Sequence record: MN384978.1
DNA length: 43,865 nt
From: Escherichia phage vB_EcolP_P433.1
Strand: one strand, 5' to 3'
Below, piece by piece: positions 3,162 through 41,027 of the stretch. Both the position numbers and the translations under genes were made by a program. Numbering within the stretch: the stretch's first letter is position 1; each line of letters begins with the position of its first letter. The notes below the pieces were generated by a model. That model did no database searches, was not told the origin of the DNA, and saw only the letters and a list, made by a program, of their open reading frames with translations.

Positions 3162-4619
3162 TTAGTAAACCAACTTAACCCTGTACGCCACAGCCCTGTT
3201 ACCAGAAGTGCCGACACGAGAAATACGAAGTGTACCCTCAGGGTTTATCTTTGTGCTCACTGGCTCAGCCGCAGTACCATCGATTGATGCAATGGCAACA
3301 ATAGTTGCAGCAGCGAGTGCCTTGGTTCTCAAGCCTACATCGACAAACGTAAGACCATCAGGGATGATAGCAACACCTTCCTGTAAGTCAGGGTGGGTAG
3401 GGCTGTCAACACTTGTTAGCTTACACTGTGGCGTAGTCAGGGTTACGCCTACTACATGAGAGCAGCCACGCAAATGCAGTGAGCTATTCCCCATGTTGCT
3501 AATTAGCATCACGTTATTTGTACGAGTACCCAAGAAGTCACAGTCAGTCGCAGTGATACCCTCCACAGAATCGATAAGGAGATCACCCTGCTGGGCTGAG
3601 TCAATATCATTGAACTGGAATGTTACATTGGTCAGACGCATGTTCTTAGGTGCATTAGCCCCACGCTTAGTGACATACAAACCAAAGTAGCGGCTGTCAG
3701 AGATACAAGTACCATTGATACGCAGGTTGTCACAAGCGCCAACCACTTCGATGCACGCTTCACTGCCAGAGTGGTTTGAAGAGTAGTAACCGAAGTCAAT
3801 CTTCACATCTTTGGCATCCTCCAGATACAGCGCCTGTCCACCTGCAAGGTCACTCATGCAGGAGTTGAACCACGTCCAGCGAGTCCCTATGATCTCAATA
3901 GCCTTACGATTCTTGGCGCTGTTGCCACATGAGTAGACTAGCTCATTTGTGAACATCAAACCCTCTGTGACACTAGAAACACCTGCAGACACGTCTTCAC
4001 TTGCATGGATAGCAGTATAACAATCAGAGTACGTGTTGTTGAAGAAGTGAGAGTTGATCTGTCCACCACCAGAGAATACCGCATAGTTGCTTGCTGCAAA
4101 GCGGTTATTCTGGATAGTAAGCTCAGCTGATGATTTACCTTTCTCACAGAAGACGCACGCATCGTAGAATGCAAACGAGTTGTCGCGCACAGTGATTAGC
4201 GGGCCTTCGATACGGATTGCCATAGTGTTGTTGCTATCCTTTCCGCCACCTACGAAGTTCAGACCTTCGATAACAGTGAATGCCGCACGAGGTATCAGAG
4301 TGGAGCCATTGTGTGTCTTCAATGTTGCACCGTACTTACCATCACTATATAGCCGGATGGCAGATGTAATTATAAGGTCAGTTACAATGTATGGCGTGTC
4401 TTTAGGCGGAACATAGACACCAGCACCCATACCTCCTGCGCGATATGCTGCTTTGATAGCTGCACGGAACGCAGGTGTGTCATCGGTAACACCATCACCC
4501 TTTGCACCAAAATCGGTGACACTAATCTGCTCACTAAGCTTCTCAGGGAGCAGTCTCAGAATAGCTGCATCGTATAGCGCCTTGTATTTCACGAAGGCAG
4601 CACCTAGCTTTTGAATCAT
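3162..4619 (-). CDS. tailspike, probable depolymerase with pectate-lyase-like right-handed beta-helix (485 aa)
   Basis: N-terminal motif ISVTDFGAKGDGVTDDTPAFRAAIKAA typical of beta-helix glycanases; AGGAGGG RBS before the ATG at 4619; position at the genome right end as in SP6/K1-5-type phages. Confidence 0.75.
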   Translation of the reverse strand: MIQKLGAAFVKYKALYDAAILRLLPEKLSEQISVTDFGAKGDGVTDDTPAFRAAIKAAYRAGGMGAGVYVPPKDTPYIVTDLIITSAIRLYSDGKYGATLKTHNGSTLIPRAAFTVIEGLNFVGGGKDSNNTMAIRIEGPLITVRDNSFAFYDACVFCEKGKSSAELTIQNNRFAASNYAVFSGGGQINSHFFNNTYSDCYTAIHASEDVSAGVSSVTEGLMFTNELVYSCGNSAKNRKAIEIIGTRWTWFNSCMSDLAGGQALYLEDAKDVKIDFGYYSSNHSGSEACIEVVGACDNLRINGTCISDSRYFGLYVTKRGANAPKNMRLTNVTFQFNDIDSAQQGDLLIDSVEGITATDCDFLGTRTNNVMLISNMGNSSLHLRGCSHVVGVTLTTPQCKLTSVDSPTHPDLQEGVAIIPDGLTFVDVGLRTKALAAATIVAIASIDGTAAEPVSTKINPEGTLRISRVGTSGNRAVAYRVKLVY

Positions 4620-4703
4620 GTACCCTCCTTTTCTGAAAGGCTACCACCATGATAACCTTTAAGAAAAGTTGCGTATAAGCGCGGCGTAAGCCGCGACTGT
4701 CTA

Positions 4704-6758
4704 TTATAACCATTCAGGCACAATAACCTCTCCCATTGAGAAGTTTGCTGCCTCACCTTCTCTACTGCACAAACGATACTTCTTATCTACTACTTCCCGT
4801 GTGTCTGTAGAAACTATGTTGTAGCAGATGTTATTAGCTGCTCTATGAACATAAGAATTTACTACTGGCTTACTTCCATCACCTTTTGCACGCGTACCAT
4901 CAATGAAGCAAGATTCTACAAGTAACAGGCCAGCAACTAAGTTGTTGCCTGTATCCCAGTCCAATATAGTCTCATTAAACTCTACACGACCTTGTGCATA
5001 AGTGGTTCCACCAGAGTAGCCTGCAAATCGACGAACGATACCACCTTTATTCTTGATGTAACTACGAGTATTGAAAGTGACAAGGTTCTTGTATTCAATA
5101 TCCATATTACATTCAAAACCTATAATACAACTTGCATATTCGTTACGATAACCTATATAAGCATCAACCTTACAACCTTTAGAGTAAGCAGGTGTAAGTT
5201 TTACAATAGGAACTTCACGAGTTGTTGCATCATGATATGATAGCGCGTATTCATAGCGGGCATTCTTTCCATGGAATACACTCCCTGTGAAGTCTATCAG
5301 TGTAGGCATCACAAAGTCACGCAATATAGGTGACACACTAGTCTTGAAGTTATTCTTGTAAGATACAATATTCAAGGTAACAGCATCAGGCCAGTGGATC
5401 TCTGATTCCACTATAATCTTACGAGGAAGATGCAATGCGCGAGGTTGAACCGGATTACCAGATGATAACACATTATCAGAACGGCACAGAATAAGGTCAA
5501 CAATACCTGTCTTTCCTTCTGGTACTCGTATGCTACCACCTTTGACAATAATGTCACCTTTGTGCTCACCATAATCAGTACGAACACCAAAGGACATAAT
5601 GTTGGAGTTAATGATACGAGTCTGCTCATCGAAGGCACCAGTGCCAACTAAGACACCTTCTTTTACAGTAGAATTATCTACTAGAACTCCAGAGGAGCCG
5701 TAGTGTAAGTGAAAGCTAGGGACAACAGAGTCACGAAGTACCACATCACGGCAGTAGTTACCATCAGCGAAACGCCATCCAGAACCACATGTGCAACCTA
5801 AGAAGGAATGCTTCAATGTATATTCCATAAGGATGGAATAACGAGAGTTATTATCAGGCTGAGGCCCGCCACTCATATTAACATGCCAGTTGACACCATA
5901 TGTATCTCCGCTTGATAATATGCTACGATCAACAGGTACTGAAATGTTACTATCAACCACGCCGTACACATTTACCTTAGAGCGAGTAATGTTGAATGCC
6001 CACTTTGTAACTGCGCCTTTGAACTTAGGAAGCACAACAGTGATGTACGATGCAGGCAACTTATACAAGGTGCAAGTAACACCGCTATTATATGTGTTCT
6101 TGAATGTATAAGCCAGATTACCTGACTTAGTCATCAAGTTAACCTCACATTTCATTCTGGCATCATATCTACCATTAAGGTAGCGATAAAGATCAACCTC
6201 TTGGCTGGTGATCTTAACCAAACTATTATCCCAGCCATCAAGACTTTCTGACACATTAAGTTGATTACTTAACTCTGTCAAAGGGTAGTTAATTACAGTG
6301 AAAGACTTAGACACATCAGTTCGCTCATCTGCCAATGTAACATTGCCACCTGTTAGGTTAAATGTCAAATTACTCAAGTCCATGTCACCATATAGTGTCA
6401 CGTCCTTGTTGATATTAATCTCGGTAGGTACAGAAGCGTAAACCTTGATACCATAACCTCTCAGTTGAGAAAATACCGTATTTAGGCCATCTGCATCTTT
6501 GGTAGGTAAGAGGGTAAGAAGATCAACACCTTTGGATGTGTCAATAATTGAAGTCCACTTACCTTCACCAATACCTTCTGTGAAGGGACTTGAACCGGGA
6601 TTCACAGTATGAGGGTAATCACCAGACCATACATAAATGTCTCTATTAAACAGGAACATATCAGCCATGCCTTGTGCCACACCACCACCCTCAAAGGTGT
6701 TTAATGTTGGTACATTAAGACTGAGTACATTACGTCCTGCACGTGTTAATCCAGCCAT
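4704..6758 (-). CDS. tailspike / receptor-binding protein (about 684 aa)
   Basis: Large Ser/Thr/Asn/Gly-rich ORF; the track start at 6818 is TTG, so the start is placed at the ATG at 6758 with TAGGAG RBS; directly downstream of the phage promoter at 6838-6860. Confidence 0.7.
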   Translation of the reverse strand: MAGLTRAGRNVLSLNVPTLNTFEGGGVAQGMADMFLFNRDIYVWSGDYPHTVNPGSSPFTEGIGEGKWTSIIDTSKGVDLLTLLPTKDADGLNTVFSQLRGYGIKVYASVPTEININKDVTLYGDMDLSNLTFNLTGGNVTLADERTDVSKSFTVINYPLTELSNQLNVSESLDGWDNSLVKITSQEVDLYRYLNGRYDARMKCEVNLMTKSGNLAYTFKNTYNSGVTCTLYKLPASYITVVLPKFKGAVTKWAFNITRSKVNVYGVVDSNISVPVDRSILSSGDTYGVNWHVNMSGGPQPDNNSRYSILMEYTLKHSFLGCTCGSGWRFADGNYCRDVVLRDSVVPSFHLHYGSSGVLVDNSTVKEGVLVGTGAFDEQTRIINSNIMSFGVRTDYGEHKGDIIVKGGSIRVPEGKTGIVDLILCRSDNVLSSGNPVQPRALHLPRKIIVESEIHWPDAVTLNIVSYKNNFKTSVSPILRDFVMPTLIDFTGSVFHGKNARYEYALSYHDATTREVPIVKLTPAYSKGCKVDAYIGYRNEYASCIIGFECNMDIEYKNLVTFNTRSYIKNKGGIVRRFAGYSGGTTYAQGRVEFNETILDWDTGNNLVAGLLLVESCFIDGTRAKGDGSKPVVNSYVHRAANNICYNIVSTDTREVVDKKYRLCSREGEAANFSMGEVIVPEWL

Positions 6759-6837
6759 ATAATCTCCTATTACTTCCCAACCCTCACCATGAAGATTGGC
6801 TAGTAATAGGCCGCTCAAAAGAACGGCACTATCTTAT

Positions 6838-6860
6838 CCCTCCTATAGTGTCCAGTAAAT
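6838..6860 (-). promoter_or_regulatory. phage RNAP promoter ATTTACTGGACACTATAGGAGGG
   Basis: Read as reverse complement on the plus strand; 23-nt match to the SP6-type core GACACTATAG; upstream of the first tailspike gene. Confidence 0.75.
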
Positions 6861-8547: not shown

Positions 8548-8570
8548 TCCTTCTATAGTGTCCAGTAATT
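8548..8570 (-). promoter_or_regulatory. phage RNAP promoter AATTACTGGACACTATAGAAGGA
   Basis: Read as reverse complement; overlaps the terL stop codon; followed by a 130-nt AT-rich leader. Confidence 0.7.
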
Positions 8571-9300
8571 AATAAGTCCTTGAAATCCTTGCAGAAATGG
8601 TGTTTCGATTGGAAGACTTACTCCGGTAATTTTGCCCATACACTCGCCGCTGCATCGCCACAGAAGTGTTGGTTACTTTTCGCTCAGTCCCGTAATCTCC
8701 ATAGAGCATGGCCCTGCGGAGGTGAGGTGTGTTCATAGCTTGGATGTAATCGCGCATCTCTTGCGCTCTGAGGCGATTAATCCGTGTAACCTCATCATAG
8801 TCTATCTGAGAAGTTAATTGCCGTATAGCGCCGTACAGAGCGTCTAAGCGGTCATCGTGCCGGAGGCTGTTCTTCTCGATCGTGATGTTCGACATTTGAT
8901 TGAAAAGGCTATAGGACATGCGTAGCTCAAGCGGATAGTTCTGTACTGACTCAAAGTCAGACTTGACCATCTCAGCATTGAAGATGAGCCTGTGGGCCGC
9001 CATGAGTGGCTCCAGTGTCTCAATGATACGCAACTCTTTCTGTCCTGTGGCGTAATCCTCTTCCAGCGTTACAGGCCACTCTCGTTCAAAGTACGGCTTA
9101 ATTACGGCCTCAAACGCGCCATGACCGAAGTTTTTCTCTATGAATACCTCTTTAACACCCGCCTGCTTTGCGGACTGCACAATGCGATTCAGGGACGATT
9201 CGCGGTATCCACCCGGTACACCGAAGCACTGATACACGTAAATGAATGTGCCGTGCAGGAAGACAATCGCTACACCCGTTTCGTCCCCGTTCTTACCTCC
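8569..9300 (-). CDS. terL: terminase large subunit, exon 2 (nuclease domain, 243 aa)
   Basis: Frame begins GGKNGDETGVAIVFLHG, i.e. mid-way through the conserved nuclease motif, with no ATG or RBS of its own; in frame with exon 1 if the 9301-10046 insert is spliced out. Confidence 0.7.
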   Translation of the reverse strand, partial: GGKNGDETGVAIVFLHGTFIYVYQCFGVPGGYRESSLNRIVQSAKQAGVKEVFIEKNFGHGAFEAVIKPYFEREWPVTLEEDYATGQKELRIIETLEPLMAAHRLIFNAEMVKSDFESVQNYPLELRMSYSLFNQMSNITIEKNSLRHDDRLDALYGAIRQLTSQIDYDEVTRINRLRAQEMRDYIQAMNTPHLRRAMLYGDYGTERKVTNTSVAMQRRVYGQNYRSKSSNRNTISARISRTY

Positions 9301-9826
9301 CGGTTTGAACGTGACGTGCGAGCCAACCCTTGTGGTGTTTACGCAAACCACGTGCCACCTTACGCATATTCTGAGGTGTTAGGTTGTGCTCTTTACAGAA
9401 GTCAGTAATGCAAGTTACAAGAAACTCTTCACCATCTGGAGAAGTGAATATGTAATCTTTGCCAGTACCTTTGTTGTAAGGTGTCATGCCTTTCTTGAAC
9501 TCAGTAGCAACAGACAAGTGCTGTCCTTTCTTTATTTCAGTGGCAATACTTATGCGTTCACCTTTCTCGATGTTACCTGCTTTGCGATAACCACCTTTAC
9601 CCTTATTCCAACCAATGTTGTCATGTGGGCGTAGCTTTTCTTCTAGTGCATAACACTCTTCTTTGCTACCAGTGAATAAGATAACGTACTCGCGGCCATC
9701 ACAAAGACGGCCTGCGCACTTGTGCTCTCTCATACGCTTCTTAATATCGGAGGTTACACCAATATAACCTTGCATTACATCAGTTTCACCAACAACACGA
9801 ATATGATAAACTTTATGCTCTGTCAT
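9293..9826 (-). CDS. GIY-YIG homing endonuclease (177 aa) encoded inside the terL intron
   Basis: KVYHIRVV...GYIGVT...RMREH GIY-YIG module at the N-terminus; NUMOD3-like repeats (ISIATEIKKGQHLSVATEFKKG); AGGGAG RBS before the ATG at 9826; stop codon lies 8 nt inside terL exon 2. Confidence 0.8.
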   Translation of the reverse strand: MTEHKVYHIRVVGETDVMQGYIGVTSDIKKRMREHKCAGRLCDGREYVILFTGSKEECYALEEKLRPHDNIGWNKGKGGYRKAGNIEKGERISIATEIKKGQHLSVATEFKKGMTPYNKGTGKDYIFTSPDGEEFLVTCITDFCKEHNLTPQNMRKVARGLRKHHKGWLARHVQTGR

Positions 9827-10046
9827 ATTTAACTCCCTTCAATTGTTACGTTAATTCGCTACTTTAACTTCCACTAGTCACCTAGTGGGTCGGACTATAT
9901 CTTAGGCTTGCGCCTCCCTCTGTTTCAGACCGCTTGGCCTTACAGTTAGTCTCTACACGTTCCTATCATTGCAACAGGCTTCGCTCGGTATTGTCTCAGT
10001 GAGAGTTCCACCGAATTAAGAGGGTTTTACGCTGGCAGAGGTGTTT
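9301..10046 (-). mobile_element. putative group I intron (746 nt) interrupting terL
   Basis: P1 pairing between exon end GCUGGU and internal guide GCCAGC; P10 pairing between exon-2 start GGAGG and CCUCU; terminal G at 9301; R-like AGAGACUAACUG (rc of 9943-9954) and S-like AAGAUAUAGUCC (rc of 9891-9902) core elements; splicing restores one 632-aa terminase frame. Confidence 0.65.
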
Positions 10047-11213
10047 ACCAGCAGGGTCAATATACATAATCTTACGGGTAACAGCACCCCATTCATACGG
10101 TCGGGCCACAGGCCGATACATGACATCTGTAGGCTTATTGCCATACTTCGGTGCGTCGCCAATGATGTTAATAGAATCATTGCTCCACGTAGGCATCACA
10201 GGAACTTCCTCTGTACCGAATGAAGTGAAGATGAGGTTGTTCAAGCGAAGTGGGTAGCGGTCAGCGTCCATCATGCGAGTGTTAAGCATAAACTGAAGCT
10301 GGAACTTAGCCGCACCCTGCGATATTTCCTTCTCGATCAGGACATCATCATCATACATTTCAGGTGCACAAGGAGCACCACTGTTACCGTCTAACCCATA
10401 ACCAGAGCGAAGTGCTGGGTTATCCTTCATATCCTGCACAATCATAGGCGCAAGGAAGTCACCATAGCATTGCTCCTGCTCCACTGAAGGGTAACGTGCA
10501 GTCCAGATACGAACAGAGTAACCACGAGCAGGTAAGTTATTGTAGATAGAGTTTACGTTCTGAGGTGTACCAAGGTAGATAATATCACCAAACTGGTTGA
10601 TAGATTCAAACTCTTTGGTCAATTCCTCAAGTAAGGCACGGCCTGCTGCTGTACGAGCATTCTGCATCGACTCAACGTCATCTGCAAGGATGATATCTGC
10701 ACGAGCACCCTGCATGCCTGCTTCGATTGAATAGCAGGATACAGAAGGTGACTTATCGCTACCACGTAAAGTGTAGTGAATCTCGAATGCCTTAACGGAT
10801 GCACGGTCTCCTGCGTAAATATCCGGTAACATAAACTCAAGGAAGTCTAAGCCACGAAAGATTTTAACTACCCAACCTGCGATTTCCTCTGCTCGCTTGG
10901 CGTTTTGGGATACAACCATTATACGCTTATGCGGTTCATGGATAATACGGAATACCGTATAGATTGCTGATAGTGTTGTCTTAGCGATACCACGAGGCGC
11001 TTCGATGAGTCGATACTTGTGTCCGTAGAATAGGAACTTCAAGATATCAGCCTGCATACGAATCAGATGAGGGTTGCCTGCAATCAAGTTATGAATAACT
11101 GTGTCTGCAAAGAGAAGCAAACCTTCCGCTGTATAGGGAAAGGTCTGCTGTAGTTCCTGTAGCATCTCCCATCTGGCAAGAGCCTCCGCTTGTGATTCTC
11201 TTGCCTTAGCCAT
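10047..11213 (-). CDS. terL: terminase large subunit, exon 1 (ATPase domain, 389 aa)
   Basis: Walker A PRGIAKTT and Walker B DIILADDVE; ends ...KIMYIDPAG at the proposed 5' splice site; the track ORF continues 16 codons into the intron before a stop at 9996. Confidence 0.75.
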
Positions 11214-11515
11214 TAATTATCCTCTTTTGTAAACTGAATGATCTTGCCACTAGATGCCTCTCGGATAGCCTTGAGACGCTTAGATAGCTTGGACTCTTCC
11301 TGCTGTGCAGCAGGTGTAGCTGTAATTCCATTATCAAGAACCCACTTACACATGGCACCAATGTCCTTACCGGATACTAAGTGTAGTGCTGCATCTGGGT
11401 CTTCTTCTATAGTGTCCAGTATTGCCTGTGCTTTCTTATTAAAGATCTTGGTAATAGCACCATGCAGAATGCCAACCTCATCTTCTGTAGCTGCATGTTT
11501 ATTGTGTACGCTCAC
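11213..11515 (-). CDS. terS: putative terminase small subunit (100 aa)
   Basis: Assigned by position between holin and terL as in T7 (gene 18); GTG start with AGGAGA RBS; no motif-level support. Confidence 0.5.
   Translation of the reverse strand: MSVHNKHAATEDEVGILHGAITKIFNKKAQAILDTIEEDPDAALHLVSGKDIGAMCKWVLDNGITATPAAQQEESKLSKRLKAIREASSGKIIQFTKEDN
11402..11424 (-). promoter_or_regulatory. weak phage-promoter-like sequence CAATACTGGACACTATAGAAGAA inside terS
   Basis: Matches the consensus from -13 to +6 but diverges at -17 to -15; lies inside the coding sequence. Confidence 0.4.
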
Positions 11516-24652: not shown

Positions 24653-24675
24653 CCCTTCTATAGTGTCCAGTAAAT
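24653..24675 (-). promoter_or_regulatory. phage RNAP promoter ATTTACTGGACACTATAGAAGGG (capsid promoter)
   Basis: Read as reverse complement; lies between the scaffold and capsid genes. Confidence 0.8.
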
Positions 24676-32675: not shown

Positions 32676-32698
32676 CTCTTCTATAGTGTCCAGTAAAT
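32676..32698 (-). promoter_or_regulatory. phage RNAP promoter ATTTACTGGACACTATAGAAGAG
   Basis: Read as reverse complement; preceded 16 bp upstream by the palindrome at 32714-32729. Confidence 0.75.
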
Positions 32699-33950: not shown

Positions 33951-33973
33951 TTGTTCTATAGTGTCCAGTAATT
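33951..33973 (-). promoter_or_regulatory. phage RNAP promoter AATTACTGGACACTATAGAACAA
   Basis: Read as reverse complement; overlaps the 3' end of the 125-aa ORF, upstream of the SSB-like gene. Confidence 0.65.
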
Positions 33974-34413: not shown

Positions 34414-34436
34414 TCCTTCTATAGTGTCCAGTAAAT
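34414..34436 (-). promoter_or_regulatory. phage RNAP promoter ATTTACTGGACACTATAGAAGGA
   Basis: Read as reverse complement; about 70 nt downstream of the DNA polymerase stop. Confidence 0.75.
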
Positions 34437-38453: not shown

Positions 38454-40442
38454 TCAGAACTCACTTTCTTCATCGAAGCCGGTCTCTTCTATAGTGTCCG
38501 GTAAATCCGGTACTTCTTGTTGCCTTGCTTCCCCTGTATCAAATGACTTAGTACGGGCTTGTGGTTCCATTAAACGTCCGGTTTGAATGTCACCCTTAAG
38601 CATGACCTTGGTTCCAGTGTAGATACCTTGGTCGCGGTCTTTGACACATGAGATGTACGTGGTAGTCCTTTCATCAAGCGTTTCAGCTCTTGTATTACGC
38701 TCAATCCCCAAGGCGTAAGATGCCCAGAATCCGATAGCACCTGAGCCTCGGAAGTCAGAAAGGATAACTTCGCCACCTTCTTCGTGCTGGACTCGGTTTC
38801 CCGCAGGGCGAGTAAGGTGCGAGACAAGGAATATAGTAACTGGGTGTCTGTCTTTGATAGTACCAATCCGCTTGACGCATTCATCAAGTGCACCAACCTT
38901 CCCACCAAAAGCACGCTCATCTAATTTAATCCCCGTTAAGTTATCAATGATGATATTAGAAATACCCATAGCCTCAAACTCAAGGCAAGTCTGCTCTACC
39001 TTCTCCATTGAGTAGTCACCTTCTAGGTCAGCTACGAAGAGCTTCCCTGTATCAGCGACATAGTCAATGGCAGCATTAGCTTCTTCCTCAGTATAGTCGA
39101 ACACCTCGCGGTATCCATCTTCTTTCGGGTCGTTGGTTGGCGGTAGTTCAATACGCTTATCAATCCACTTGCCGATAAAAGCACGAGACACTTTGACCAT
39201 CGGGTCTTCTGTAGAAATAATGCCTACGGATTCACCGTGTTCTTCGATGAGGTGCTTAACCACTTCACGGAGGAACTCAGTCTTACCTACACCAGAGCCT
39301 GCGCCTACAATGATAAGCTGGTTCTTACGGATACCTAGCGTTACTTTGTTCAGCTTAGGCCAAGGCCATGACAGCCCTTGCTCTGGTCGTGCGGCCTTAA
39401 GTTTATCCCTTTGAGATGCAATAGATTTAATCTGGCTACCAAAGACTTCATCAGACGACTTGGCATTAAACCACGCATCTACAAATTCTTTAGCCTTGCC
39501 AGCCATCAATGCCTTATTGGCATCTTTGCACCCAGAAGGGTACTCAAGAATATAGGATTTGCCGGGAAAGAGGCGAGCCGCTTGTTGGTTCTGCTTCTGC
39601 CCTACTTCATCCCCATCGAAGCCCCAAATAATCTTCTTGAATTGGGCGATGTGTTCACGGTTCTGCACAATCTCTTCAAGGCAAGATTCACCCTTATTAA
39701 CAGACCATACGTGGTAGGGCTGGCCTTCCCACTTAGTGCCTTTGGCAGAATCAAGGAGCATCTGTTGTGCTGCTAGTGCATCAAGCTCTCCGCCTACAAT
39801 AAGCAAGCAATCCTTCCGTCTTCCCTTGTCTAACACGTGAGACAAAGTATTCATACCGAAAAGATCTTGCATACCAAAGAGCTTACCTAGGTGACCAAAC
39901 TTAAAGTCTTTAGGTAAGGTACGGCACTTAGCGCCTACTAGCTCACCTCTCTCGAAGCGTGGATAGTAATGCCGTGAGACTCTACCCTCTTCATCGTGTC
40001 CGACACGTACATCATACAATGCGCAAATGTCGCCGCGAATGTGTCGGGAAACAAGATTCTTACGCTTAAGCGTGAGGAACCATTCAACATCAAGTTTCCA
40101 CTCTGCTTCTTGGTCTGCCCTTTCTTGCTCATTCATGACCTCCCAACGGTCTTTCATACGCATACCACCAAGTGCGATGGCTCGCAGCTTAGGGTCGCTT
40201 ATCTTCCCTTCCCTCTCCATCTCTTTGAATTGAGAAGGTGTGTATTTTATGTTGCCAGTAATAGGCAACTCGGTGATCTCGATACCGCCGTCTGGCTTGT
40301 GGTAGTATGGCTTGCCATTATCATGGAAGTGACCACGGTTACAATAGCCAGCACCATCATCAAATATCATGAGATGGTTGCCGGATTTATCGTGTCCATT
40401 CTTCTGGCAAGCAGGGCACGGGATGTTATTAATAATAGCCAT
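38454..40442 (-). CDS. DNA primase-helicase, T7 gp4-like (662 aa)
   Basis: N-terminal zinc ribbon CPACQ...YCNRGHF; helicase Walker A GAGSGVGKTEF; acidic C-terminal tail ending in Phe (...TGFDEESEF) as in T7 gp4. Confidence 0.9.
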   Translation of the reverse strand: MAIINNIPCPACQKNGHDKSGNHLMIFDDGAGYCNRGHFHDNGKPYYHKPDGGIEITELPITGNIKYTPSQFKEMEREGKISDPKLRAIALGGMRMKDRWEVMNEQERADQEAEWKLDVEWFLTLKRKNLVSRHIRGDICALYDVRVGHDEEGRVSRHYYPRFERGELVGAKCRTLPKDFKFGHLGKLFGMQDLFGMNTLSHVLDKGRRKDCLLIVGGELDALAAQQMLLDSAKGTKWEGQPYHVWSVNKGESCLEEIVQNREHIAQFKKIIWGFDGDEVGQKQNQQAARLFPGKSYILEYPSGCKDANKALMAGKAKEFVDAWFNAKSSDEVFGSQIKSIASQRDKLKAARPEQGLSWPWPKLNKVTLGIRKNQLIIVGAGSGVGKTEFLREVVKHLIEEHGESVGIISTEDPMVKVSRAFIGKWIDKRIELPPTNDPKEDGYREVFDYTEEEANAAIDYVADTGKLFVADLEGDYSMEKVEQTCLEFEAMGISNIIIDNLTGIKLDERAFGGKVGALDECVKRIGTIKDRHPVTIFLVSHLTRPAGNRVQHEEGGEVILSDFRGSGAIGFWASYALGIERNTRAETLDERTTTYISCVKDRDQGIYTGTKVMLKGDIQTGRLMEPQARTKSFDTGEARQQEVPDLPDTIEETGFDEESEF
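38484..38506 (-). promoter_or_regulatory. phage RNAP promoter ATTTACCGGACACTATAGAAGAG inside the 3' end of the primase-helicase gene
   Basis: CCG sub-class at -12 to -10; lies within the last codons of the helicase ORF. Confidence 0.6.
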
Positions 40443-41004: not shown

Positions 41005-41027
41005 TTCTCCTATAGTGTCCGGTAAAT
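41005..41027 (-). promoter_or_regulatory. phage RNAP promoter ATTTACCGGACACTATAGGAGAA
   Basis: First phage promoter downstream of the polymerase gene; CCG sub-class. Confidence 0.7.

Follow-up and report, generated by a model that had tools for sequence, protein, structure and literature searches.

The split terminase gene

The stretch of DNA analyzed here (43,865 nt, hereafter the window) comprises the genome of an SP6-like phage in circularly permuted form. [quoted passage not shown] The first piece belongs to an open reading frame (ORF; 11213-9996, minus strand) that encodes the motifs PRGIAKTT (Walker A) and DIILADD (Walker B), and it can be aligned with gene 40 of phage K1-5 and with T7 gp19. 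Its reading frame continues to ...KIMYIDPAG at position 10047 and is followed by 16 unrelated codons (KHLCQRKTLLIRWNSH) and then by a stop codon. The frame of the second piece, read from 9300, is GGKNGDETGVAIV; there is no start codon at that point, and the frame ends at 8569.

Table 1. Features of the terL locus in the window, in the order of transcription
Feature	Position	Strand	Description and basis
terL exon 1	10047..11213	minus	389 codons; ATPase domain and start of the nuclease domain (...IDPAG, including the conserved Asp)
Group I intron (predicted)	9301..10046	minus	746 nt; IA2-like, without P2 and P7.1; RF00028 match, single-gap alignment, covariation
Internal guide (predicted)	10031..10041	minus	P10 guide CCUCU (10041-10037), then P1 guide GCCAGC (10036-10031); complementarity to exons
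Ribozyme core (predicted)	9850..10024	minus	Helix model; pairing in 7 introns and 111 family members; minimum free energy (MFE) fold
P3	10024-10019 with 9921-9916	minus	CCCUCU with AGAGGG
P4	10014-10009 with 9990-9985	minus	UCGGUG with UACCGA
P5 hairpin	10004-9994	minus	
P6a hairpin	9978-9962	minus	
P7	9953-9947 with 9897-9892	minus	G(A)GACUA with UAGUCC; R-like and S-like elements
P7.2 hairpin	9940-9927	minus	
P8 hairpin	9915-9904	minus	GCAA cap
P9 hairpin	9888-9871	minus	GUGA cap
P9.1 hairpin	9868-9850	minus	
Homing endonuclease ORF (predicted)	9293..9826	minus	177 aa; N-terminal GIY-YIG nuclease and C-terminal I-HmuI-like DNA-binding domain (predicted)
Terminal G (omega-G), 3' splice site (predicted)	9301	minus	Also the final base in seven mapped homologous terL introns
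terL exon 2	8569..9300	minus	243 codons and stop; remainder of the T7-type RNase H-like nuclease domain and C-terminus

Joining 10047 to 9300 in silico produced a gene of 1899 nt encoding 632 amino acids, with the junction IDPAG/GGKNGDETG that had been predicted for the spliced terminase. The product is identical to K1-5 gp40 at 621 positions. K1-5 gene 40 is intron-less and likewise 1899 nt long, and the comparison with intron-less terL genes that the initial annotation had proposed produced, for this gene, an alignment with one gap of 746 nt. Supporting this reconstruction is the match to the T7 terminase RNase H-like nuclease domain (Pfam PF22530): exon 2 alone covers profile positions 5-108 of 108, whereas the spliced TerL covers positions 1-108 (residues 385-494), so that the full domain is restored. 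The alignment with T7 gp19 (8dgc) also runs unbroken over the exon junction. Based on these two alignments, the insertion falls in the first nuclease-domain strand, directly after the conserved IDPAG. The Asp of this motif is catalytic in terminase nucleases.

Identification of the insert as a group I intron

A search with the Rfam group I intron model had also been proposed. When the whole window was scanned against Rfam the single match was RF00028, the group I intron family, on the minus strand from 10078 to 9871 (63.6 bits versus a gathering score of 50; E = 5.7e-14), with the full model (1-253) covered. Six related loci had RF00028 scores of 56-64 bits.

The match to an RNA family bears directly on whether the two halves of TerL might be joined at the protein level, by an intein or by programmed recoding (frameshift or readthrough). 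Such a reading has only the split gene itself in its favor, and we give it practically no weight: the insert has a stop codon after 16 codons in the exon-1 frame, the internal ORF is supplied with a ribosome binding site (RBS) and a start codon of its own, intein motifs were not found and the insert resembles a known class of RNA. The sequence effectively refutes it.

The elements that the initial annotation had assigned to a group I intron (the strands of P1, P10 and P7, and the terminal G) were all located. In P1, the end of exon 1, GCUGGU (10052-10047), would pair with the GCCAGC guide (10036-10031) situated 10 nt into the insert, placing a U.G pair at the splice site; U.G is the most frequent pair at the splice-site column of the family alignment (53 sequences). 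The CCUCU directly 5' of this guide is complementary to the GGAGG that opens exon 2, giving P10. The 746-nt gap can be shifted one base to the left with the protein unchanged; we placed the boundaries at 10046 and 9301 because only there does exon 1 end in U and the intron in G, as group I chemistry demands.

The P1 guide differs between phages together with the exon. In the window and in phages of the K1E type the exon-1 end GCUGGU is accompanied by the guide GCCAGC, while the exon-1 end GCGGGU occurs with the guide GCUCGC in two metagenomic phages and with GCCCGC in another. In Pseudomonas phage PA28 the exon end is AACGGU and the guide GCCGUU, and its P10 is formed by GGUGAU/AUCACU instead of GGAGG/CCUCU. 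Among comparative data, this co-change of guide and exon is the most direct evidence for splicing. The uninterrupted junction sequence GCTGGT/GGAGG was found in none of 63 intron-less alleles from IMG/VR, and the GGA codon, which provides the A-U pair of P10, is present in only three of these 63 alleles, compared with every intron-containing allele examined.

The 3' splice site lies approximately 550 nt past the last helix of the core, P9.1, and apart from P10 no significant pairing was found that would link this distant site to the core. A pairing between the final 28 nt of the intron and the P6a/J6/7/P7 region (-22.6 kcal/mol) was dismissed as chance: it was equalled by 130 of 500 shuffles and by 6 of 160 other windows of the ORF, and its target is unconserved in diverged homologs.

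Ribozyme core and covariation

To describe the core we used a model of 54 base pairs, including the P3/P7 pseudoknot, in seven terL introns (those of the window, K1E, cp4, K1-ULIP33, PST_H2, phD2B, and VEN). All 377 pair cells in this set are standard pairs (100%), and 13 pairs are changed on both sides. On four of the five measures the observed value was reached by none of 500 shuffles, and on the fifth (further pair types) by one of 500. When the 3' partner was slid by 1-3 columns as a control, only 31-41% of the cells were paired. The MFE fold alone finds P1, P3, P4, P5, P6a, P7.2, P8, and P9 (z = -2.88).

A larger family was gathered from IMG/VR, in which a 17-nt core motif located at least 120 loci. 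A covariance model based on those seven introns found 111 places in 100 sources (the window, one further locus, L005, and the first 98 of the IMG/VR loci). Across these 111 members pairing holds in 96.3% of the pair cells and double-sided changes occur at 53 of the 54 pairs, although the percentages for helices other than P7 are inflated because the alignment was fitted to the model structure. P7 provides an independent check because it was left out of the search model; it is paired in 99.4% of cells and includes five covarying pairs.

Subgroup IA2 is marked by P2 and by the extra hairpins P7.1 and P7.2, located between P7 and the 3' strand of P3. Of these, the predicted intron has P7.2 (9940-9927) but neither P2 nor P7.1; VEN and the majority of the family do have P7.1. 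Homology in sequence to IA2 introns has been stated (PMC2504315), and the intron is described here as IA2-like.

The core and its guide also weigh on the most obvious alternative to splicing, namely that a free-standing endonuclease gene has been inserted into terL and that each half of TerL is translated by itself before the two assemble. The GenBank annotation of K1E has two separate coding sequences, gp40A and gp40B, and there is a precedent for a gene divided in this way without splicing, nrdA of Aeromonas phage Aeh1, which is split by mobE (PMC7344957). A possible start for the second half is the GTG at 9351 (the GenBank start of gp40B), which is preceded by AAGGUGG; however, we rejected it as a functional start, as it falls inside the ORF of the endonuclease and lacks conservation in both phD2B and VEN. 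Separate translation would also place the Asp of the catalytic motif and the remainder of the nuclease fold on different polypeptides, and it has no use for a complete, covarying ribozyme core or for a guide which tracks the codons of the exon and would be purposeless without splicing. We therefore regard two separately made halves as most improbable.

The putative intron-encoded endonuclease

The 177-aa ORF in the 3' tail of the intron, after P9.1, has its own RBS (AAGGGAG, 9839-9833) and ends at a TAA located 8 nt into exon 2, as had been reported in the initial annotation. Most members of the family end in ...TGR, which indicates that their ORFs read through the same 3' splice site. Four homologs with 52-61% identity are all situated between two terL halves.

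The initial annotation had assigned this product a GIY-YIG module and NUMOD3-like repeats, and of these the former was upheld by fold and homologs. The Pfam match of the window's protein to GIY-YIG (PF01541) is below threshold, with 20.8 bits versus a gathering score of 22.6 (E = 4.7e-4), and covers residues 20-42 only; nevertheless, 18 of 25 homologs have a GIY-YIG match at E <= 0.01, the best being 5.6e-6. The AlphaFold model (mean pLDDT 81.7) has an N-terminal domain with the order beta-beta-alpha-beta-alpha, and residues Y7, Y21, G23, R31, H35, E62, and N74 are invariant. Both the GIY-YIG alpha/beta fold and its conserved catalytic residues (Tyr...Tyr-Ile-Gly, Arg, Glu, Asn) are present. 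NUMOD3-like repeats, on the other hand, were not recovered, there being no Pfam NUMOD3 match to the product even at E <= 10. The C-terminal region (residues 130-168) instead resembles the NUMOD-like DNA-binding module of I-HmuI, a domain matched in 20 of the 25 homologs.

The dN/dS values against nine homologs ranged from 0.06 to 0.45 and were at most 0.22 in all but PA28; the ORF is intact and, judged by these ratios, under purifying selection. This is pertinent to the idea that the window holds a decayed or splicing-defective copy of the intron, so that the genome would be defective or splicing would depend totally on a protein cofactor from host or phage. The missing P2 and P7.1 fit such an idea, but introns 95-99% identical to the window's occur in viable, cultured phages (K1E, vB_EcoP_C/D/R, cp4, and PST_H2), pairing is preserved wherever the cores of the window and K1E differ (including a compensatory pair in P9, at 9887 and 9872), and the endonuclease ORF has been maintained. 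We consider this reading very unlikely.

Distribution and mobility

The insert is present in 15 of 106 phage records that have a related terL, and the same intron occurs in at least 13 GenBank phages. Its range extends over several subfamilies of the Autographiviridae and over phages of Escherichia, Klebsiella, Salmonella, Lelliottia, Vibrio, and Pseudomonas. Klebsiella phage cp4 and the window share 96-100% identity across the intron but only 66-88% across the exons beside it, with the break falling at the intron boundaries; a near-identical intron amid diverged exons indicates recent horizontal spread. Two GenBank records bear the name K1E, one with the intron (AM084415) and one without it (KY435490). 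These records are 98-100% identical downstream from the intron site but only 85-97% identical upstream, a pattern that would be expected from one-sided co-conversion during homing. The sporadic distribution and the break in identity at the boundaries are indirect signs that the ORF product may cleave the intron-less allele at a specific site.

Proposed mechanism and its consequences

The covariance score, the covariation, the co-change of guide and exon, the existence of intron-less alleles, the restoration of the nuclease domain and the GIY-YIG fold of the ORF product all support the proposal of the initial annotation that a group I intron with a GIY-YIG homing endonuclease interrupts terL at its nuclease motif. 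From this evidence, the 746-nt insert is very probably a mobile self-splicing group I intron of an IA2-like, reduced type (no P2 or P7.1).

Under this interpretation, terL and the intron would be transcribed together as a single pre-mRNA. The phage promoter consensus (TTACTGGACACTATAGAAGGA), which has nine copies in the window versus none expected by chance, does not occur within the intron, and we therefore expect the intron to be transcribed as part of the terL pre-mRNA. A promoter of its own for the endonuclease was considered, as the P9 hairpin superficially resembles an SP6-type promoter, and was rejected, there being no copy of the consensus in the intron. The core would then fold, with GCCAGC pairing to the exon-1 end to form P1 and its U.G wobble at the splice site, and an external guanosine would attack the 5' splice site. 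Pairing of CCUCU with the GGAGG of exon 2 (P10) and docking of the terminal G (9301) would be followed by ligation of the exons, giving the mRNA for the 632-aa TerL. We found no published splicing experiment for an intron of the K1E type in the literature. With neither P2 nor P7.1 present, the intron might need a protein cofactor in order to splice efficiently in vivo.

Unspliced RNA would be expected to give the endonuclease along with a truncated ATPase fragment that ends at the stop codon 16 codons into the intron. As this fragment would consist of the ATPase and the first nuclease strand only, packaging of the phage DNA is expected to depend on splicing. The endonuclease presumably cleaves the intron-less terL of co-infecting relatives, and repair off the intron-bearing copy would then spread the intron along with flanking exon sequence.

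A more speculative candidate, which we think rather unlikely to be correct, is that endonuclease synthesis and terL splicing are mutually exclusive on any one transcript, as in a switch, and that the endonuclease may serve as a weapon on intron-less relatives. Ribosomes on the endonuclease ORF would cover the 3' splice site because the ORF crosses it and the exon-2 bases of P10. If exclusivity were true, the intron would have a built-in switch that sets the proportion of TerL to endonuclease or the time at which they are made. If the second idea were true, cutting of the packaging gene of co-infecting intron-less relatives would be a form of interference competition, which has been shown for an intron endonuclease of phage PhiPA3 (PMC11620839).

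For annotation, terL is best given as one joined coding sequence with an intron feature; most of the relatives in GenBank have two "terminase" genes and a free-standing endonuclease. The locus illustrates neatly how a mobile intron can occupy the catalytic motif of an essential late gene, and its natural intron-plus and intron-minus pairs (the two K1E records, and K1E versus K1-5) are suited to tests of homing, co-conversion and competition between phages. It leaves current understanding unchanged.

Comparison with known introns

The terL intron is already known, both from the annotation of K1E and from the literature (PMC2504315, PMC4246154). The initial annotation suggested that no such intron was known in terL of SP6-like phages, a statement that does not hold: in the SP6-like phage K1E (AM084415, NC_007637) this site is occupied by the same intron (genes 40A/40.5/40B), with the same length of 746 nt and 98.7% identity. 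In its GenBank annotation (AM084415) the three genes are gp40A, gp40.5 ("putative homing endonuclease"), and gp40B. The introns of K1E and the window differ by ten substitutions, including the one compensatory P9 pair, and their endonucleases are a single residue apart (I71M). "Enterobacterial phage K1E (large terminase)" was listed by Tourasse and Kolstø (2008; PMC2504315) among the introns homologous to their IA2 introns. The genome in the window is approximately 89-91% identical to K1E in conserved modules, with a different tail-spike module, and in the phage collection its top matches overall reach approximately 84-85% identity. Based on these values, the genome that hosts the intron is a new relative, while the intron itself is known.

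Other phage introns of group IA2 are those of T4 td, which has I-TevI, T4 nrdB, T4 sunY, and Staphylococcus phage Twort. These phage introns have the same core as the window's, with P7.2 and GNRA-capped P8 and P9; they likewise interrupt an essential phage gene where it encodes a conserved catalytic region, and some have a GIY-YIG endonuclease. The window's intron differs in that it has neither P2 nor P7.1 and in that its ORF extends 8 nt beyond the 3' splice site. The ORF of td is in P6, whereas that of the window's intron follows P9.1. In sunY the ORF is in the 3' part, which leaves a long distance between the core and the 3' splice site, as in the intron described here.

Homologous ribozymes and endonucleases occur in terL, at or beside IDPAG, in Lelliottia phage phD2B, Vibrio phage VEN, and Pseudomonas phage PA28. 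For phD2B, Nowicki et al. (2014; PMC4246154) explicitly interpreted the divided terL as exons flanking an intron that carries a homing endonuclease, and they also noted K1E. The cores of phD2B and VEN are approximately 75-78% identical to the window's, with many compensatory changes, and VEN, unlike the window, has retained P7.1. The PA28 intron is inserted two codons further downstream and has a re-targeted guide. Unlike the ORF in the window, those of VEN and PA28 stop before the 3' splice site.

Outside this group, the IA2 introns TMP-IVS1/2 of Bacillus cereus prophages have the same core, with P7.2 and GNRA-capped P8 and P9 (PMC2504315). Two further terL genes are known to be interrupted, one in a B. 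cereus prophage by the group I intron term-IVS1, which includes the gene for a GIY-YIG endonuclease (PMC2504315), and one in Pectobacterium phage CB7 by a group I intron with an HNH endonuclease, for which splicing was shown by RT-PCR (PMC7344957). Both represent unrelated phages, with other introns at other sites than those of the window, and the CB7 endonuclease also belongs to another family.

Annotation of terL and the endonuclease ORF

Splitting of terL into two CDSs, as in most related records, is probably a gene-caller artefact, because the GTG annotated in GenBank as the start of gp40B (the exon-2 CDS of K1E) lies inside the endonuclease ORF and is not conserved in Lelliottia phage phD2B or Vibrio phage VEN, both of which have homologous terL introns. 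This GTG is preceded by AAGGUGG.

Most of the endonuclease homologs have the C-terminal end ...TGR (alignment A5), which at the DNA level is ACN-G|GG-AGG-TAA in the window, phD2B and locus L193 (P0009), where the ORF runs over the 3' splice site (|) and ends in exon 2. The stop codon of the ORFs that cross this site comes from a conserved exon sequence, GGAGGUAA(G). In contrast, the endonucleases of VEN and locus L195 (...SGR/...IGR) have stop codons that precede the junction and do not read into exon 2.

Relatives of the intron that have no ORF (IMG/VR, e.g., L113, L024, and L029) have the apparent end "...UGAAnAnnAUG|exon" soon after the P9.1 hairpin. The AUG of the window endonuclease (9826-9824; region 9824-9850) is at the position equivalent to this intron end, as though the 3' tail of the intron had acquired the ORF. 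A speculative possibility is that use of a cryptic 3' splice site at this AUG would produce an in-frame fusion of the TerL ATPase with the endonuclease; this candidate site has no supporting P10.

Genome context and promoters

The window is a near-complete, circularly permuted SP6-like genome, and its conserved modules are ~89-91% identical to those of K1E. One of its two tail-spike ORFs has a pectate-lyase-like domain in place of the K1 endosialidase, suggesting that the capsule specificity of this phage differs from that of K1E. The SP6/K1E-type phage promoter consensus, TTACTGGACACTATAGAAGGA, is present in nine copies, versus zero expected by chance. One copy begins immediately downstream of the terL stop codon, and another is in the terS region; when the whole window was scanned, all nine copies were outside the intron.

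Positions of promoter copies and other features in the window
Feature	Position	Strand	Remark
Tail-spike ORFs (two; 485 and 704 aa)	3162-6818	minus	K1E counterpart absent
Promoter 1	6838-6858	minus	match to TTACTGGACACTATAGAAGGA
Promoter 2	8548-8568	minus	match to TTACTGGACACTATAGAAGGA
GTG, GenBank "gp40B" start	9349-9351	minus	inside endonuclease ORF
Promoter 3	11402-11422	minus	match to TTACTGGACACTATAGAAGGA
Promoter 4	24653-24673	minus	match to TTACTGGACACTATAGAAGGA
Promoter 5	32676-32696	minus	match to TTACTGGACACTATAGAAGGA
Promoter 6	33951-33971	minus	match to TTACTGGACACTATAGAAGGA
Promoter 7	34414-34434	minus	match to TTACTGGACACTATAGAAGGA
Promoter 8	38484-38504	minus	match to TTACTGGACACTATAGAAGGA
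Promoter 9	41005-41025	minus	match to TTACTGGACACTATAGAAGGA

Distribution of the intron family

The intron family with the 17-nt core motif ACAATACCGAGCGAAGC (P4 3' strand to P6) is very widespread in phages: the motif is present in at least 120 IMG/VR viral contigs (L010-L129), and among the matches listed, several contigs (e.g., L086, L103, and L047) have two or three related introns near each other.

Two GenBank records named K1E differ in the terL region, the intron being present in AM084415 (L001/L009) and absent from KY435490 (L197). With the intron taken out, the two are 98-100% identical downstream of the insertion site, that site included, and only 85-97% identical upstream. This step in identity places a recombination boundary at the intron site and, judged from the sequences, looks like one-sided co-conversion.

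The terL gene of Pseudomonas phage PA28 (L005) also holds a homologous intron and endonuclease (1992-2786); the GenBank record of PA28 is unannotated and therefore does not list this intron. Relative to the window intron, the PA28 intron is inserted two codons downstream (IDPAGNG|GDE), and its P1 and P10 guide sequences are both altered, fitting the new insertion site.
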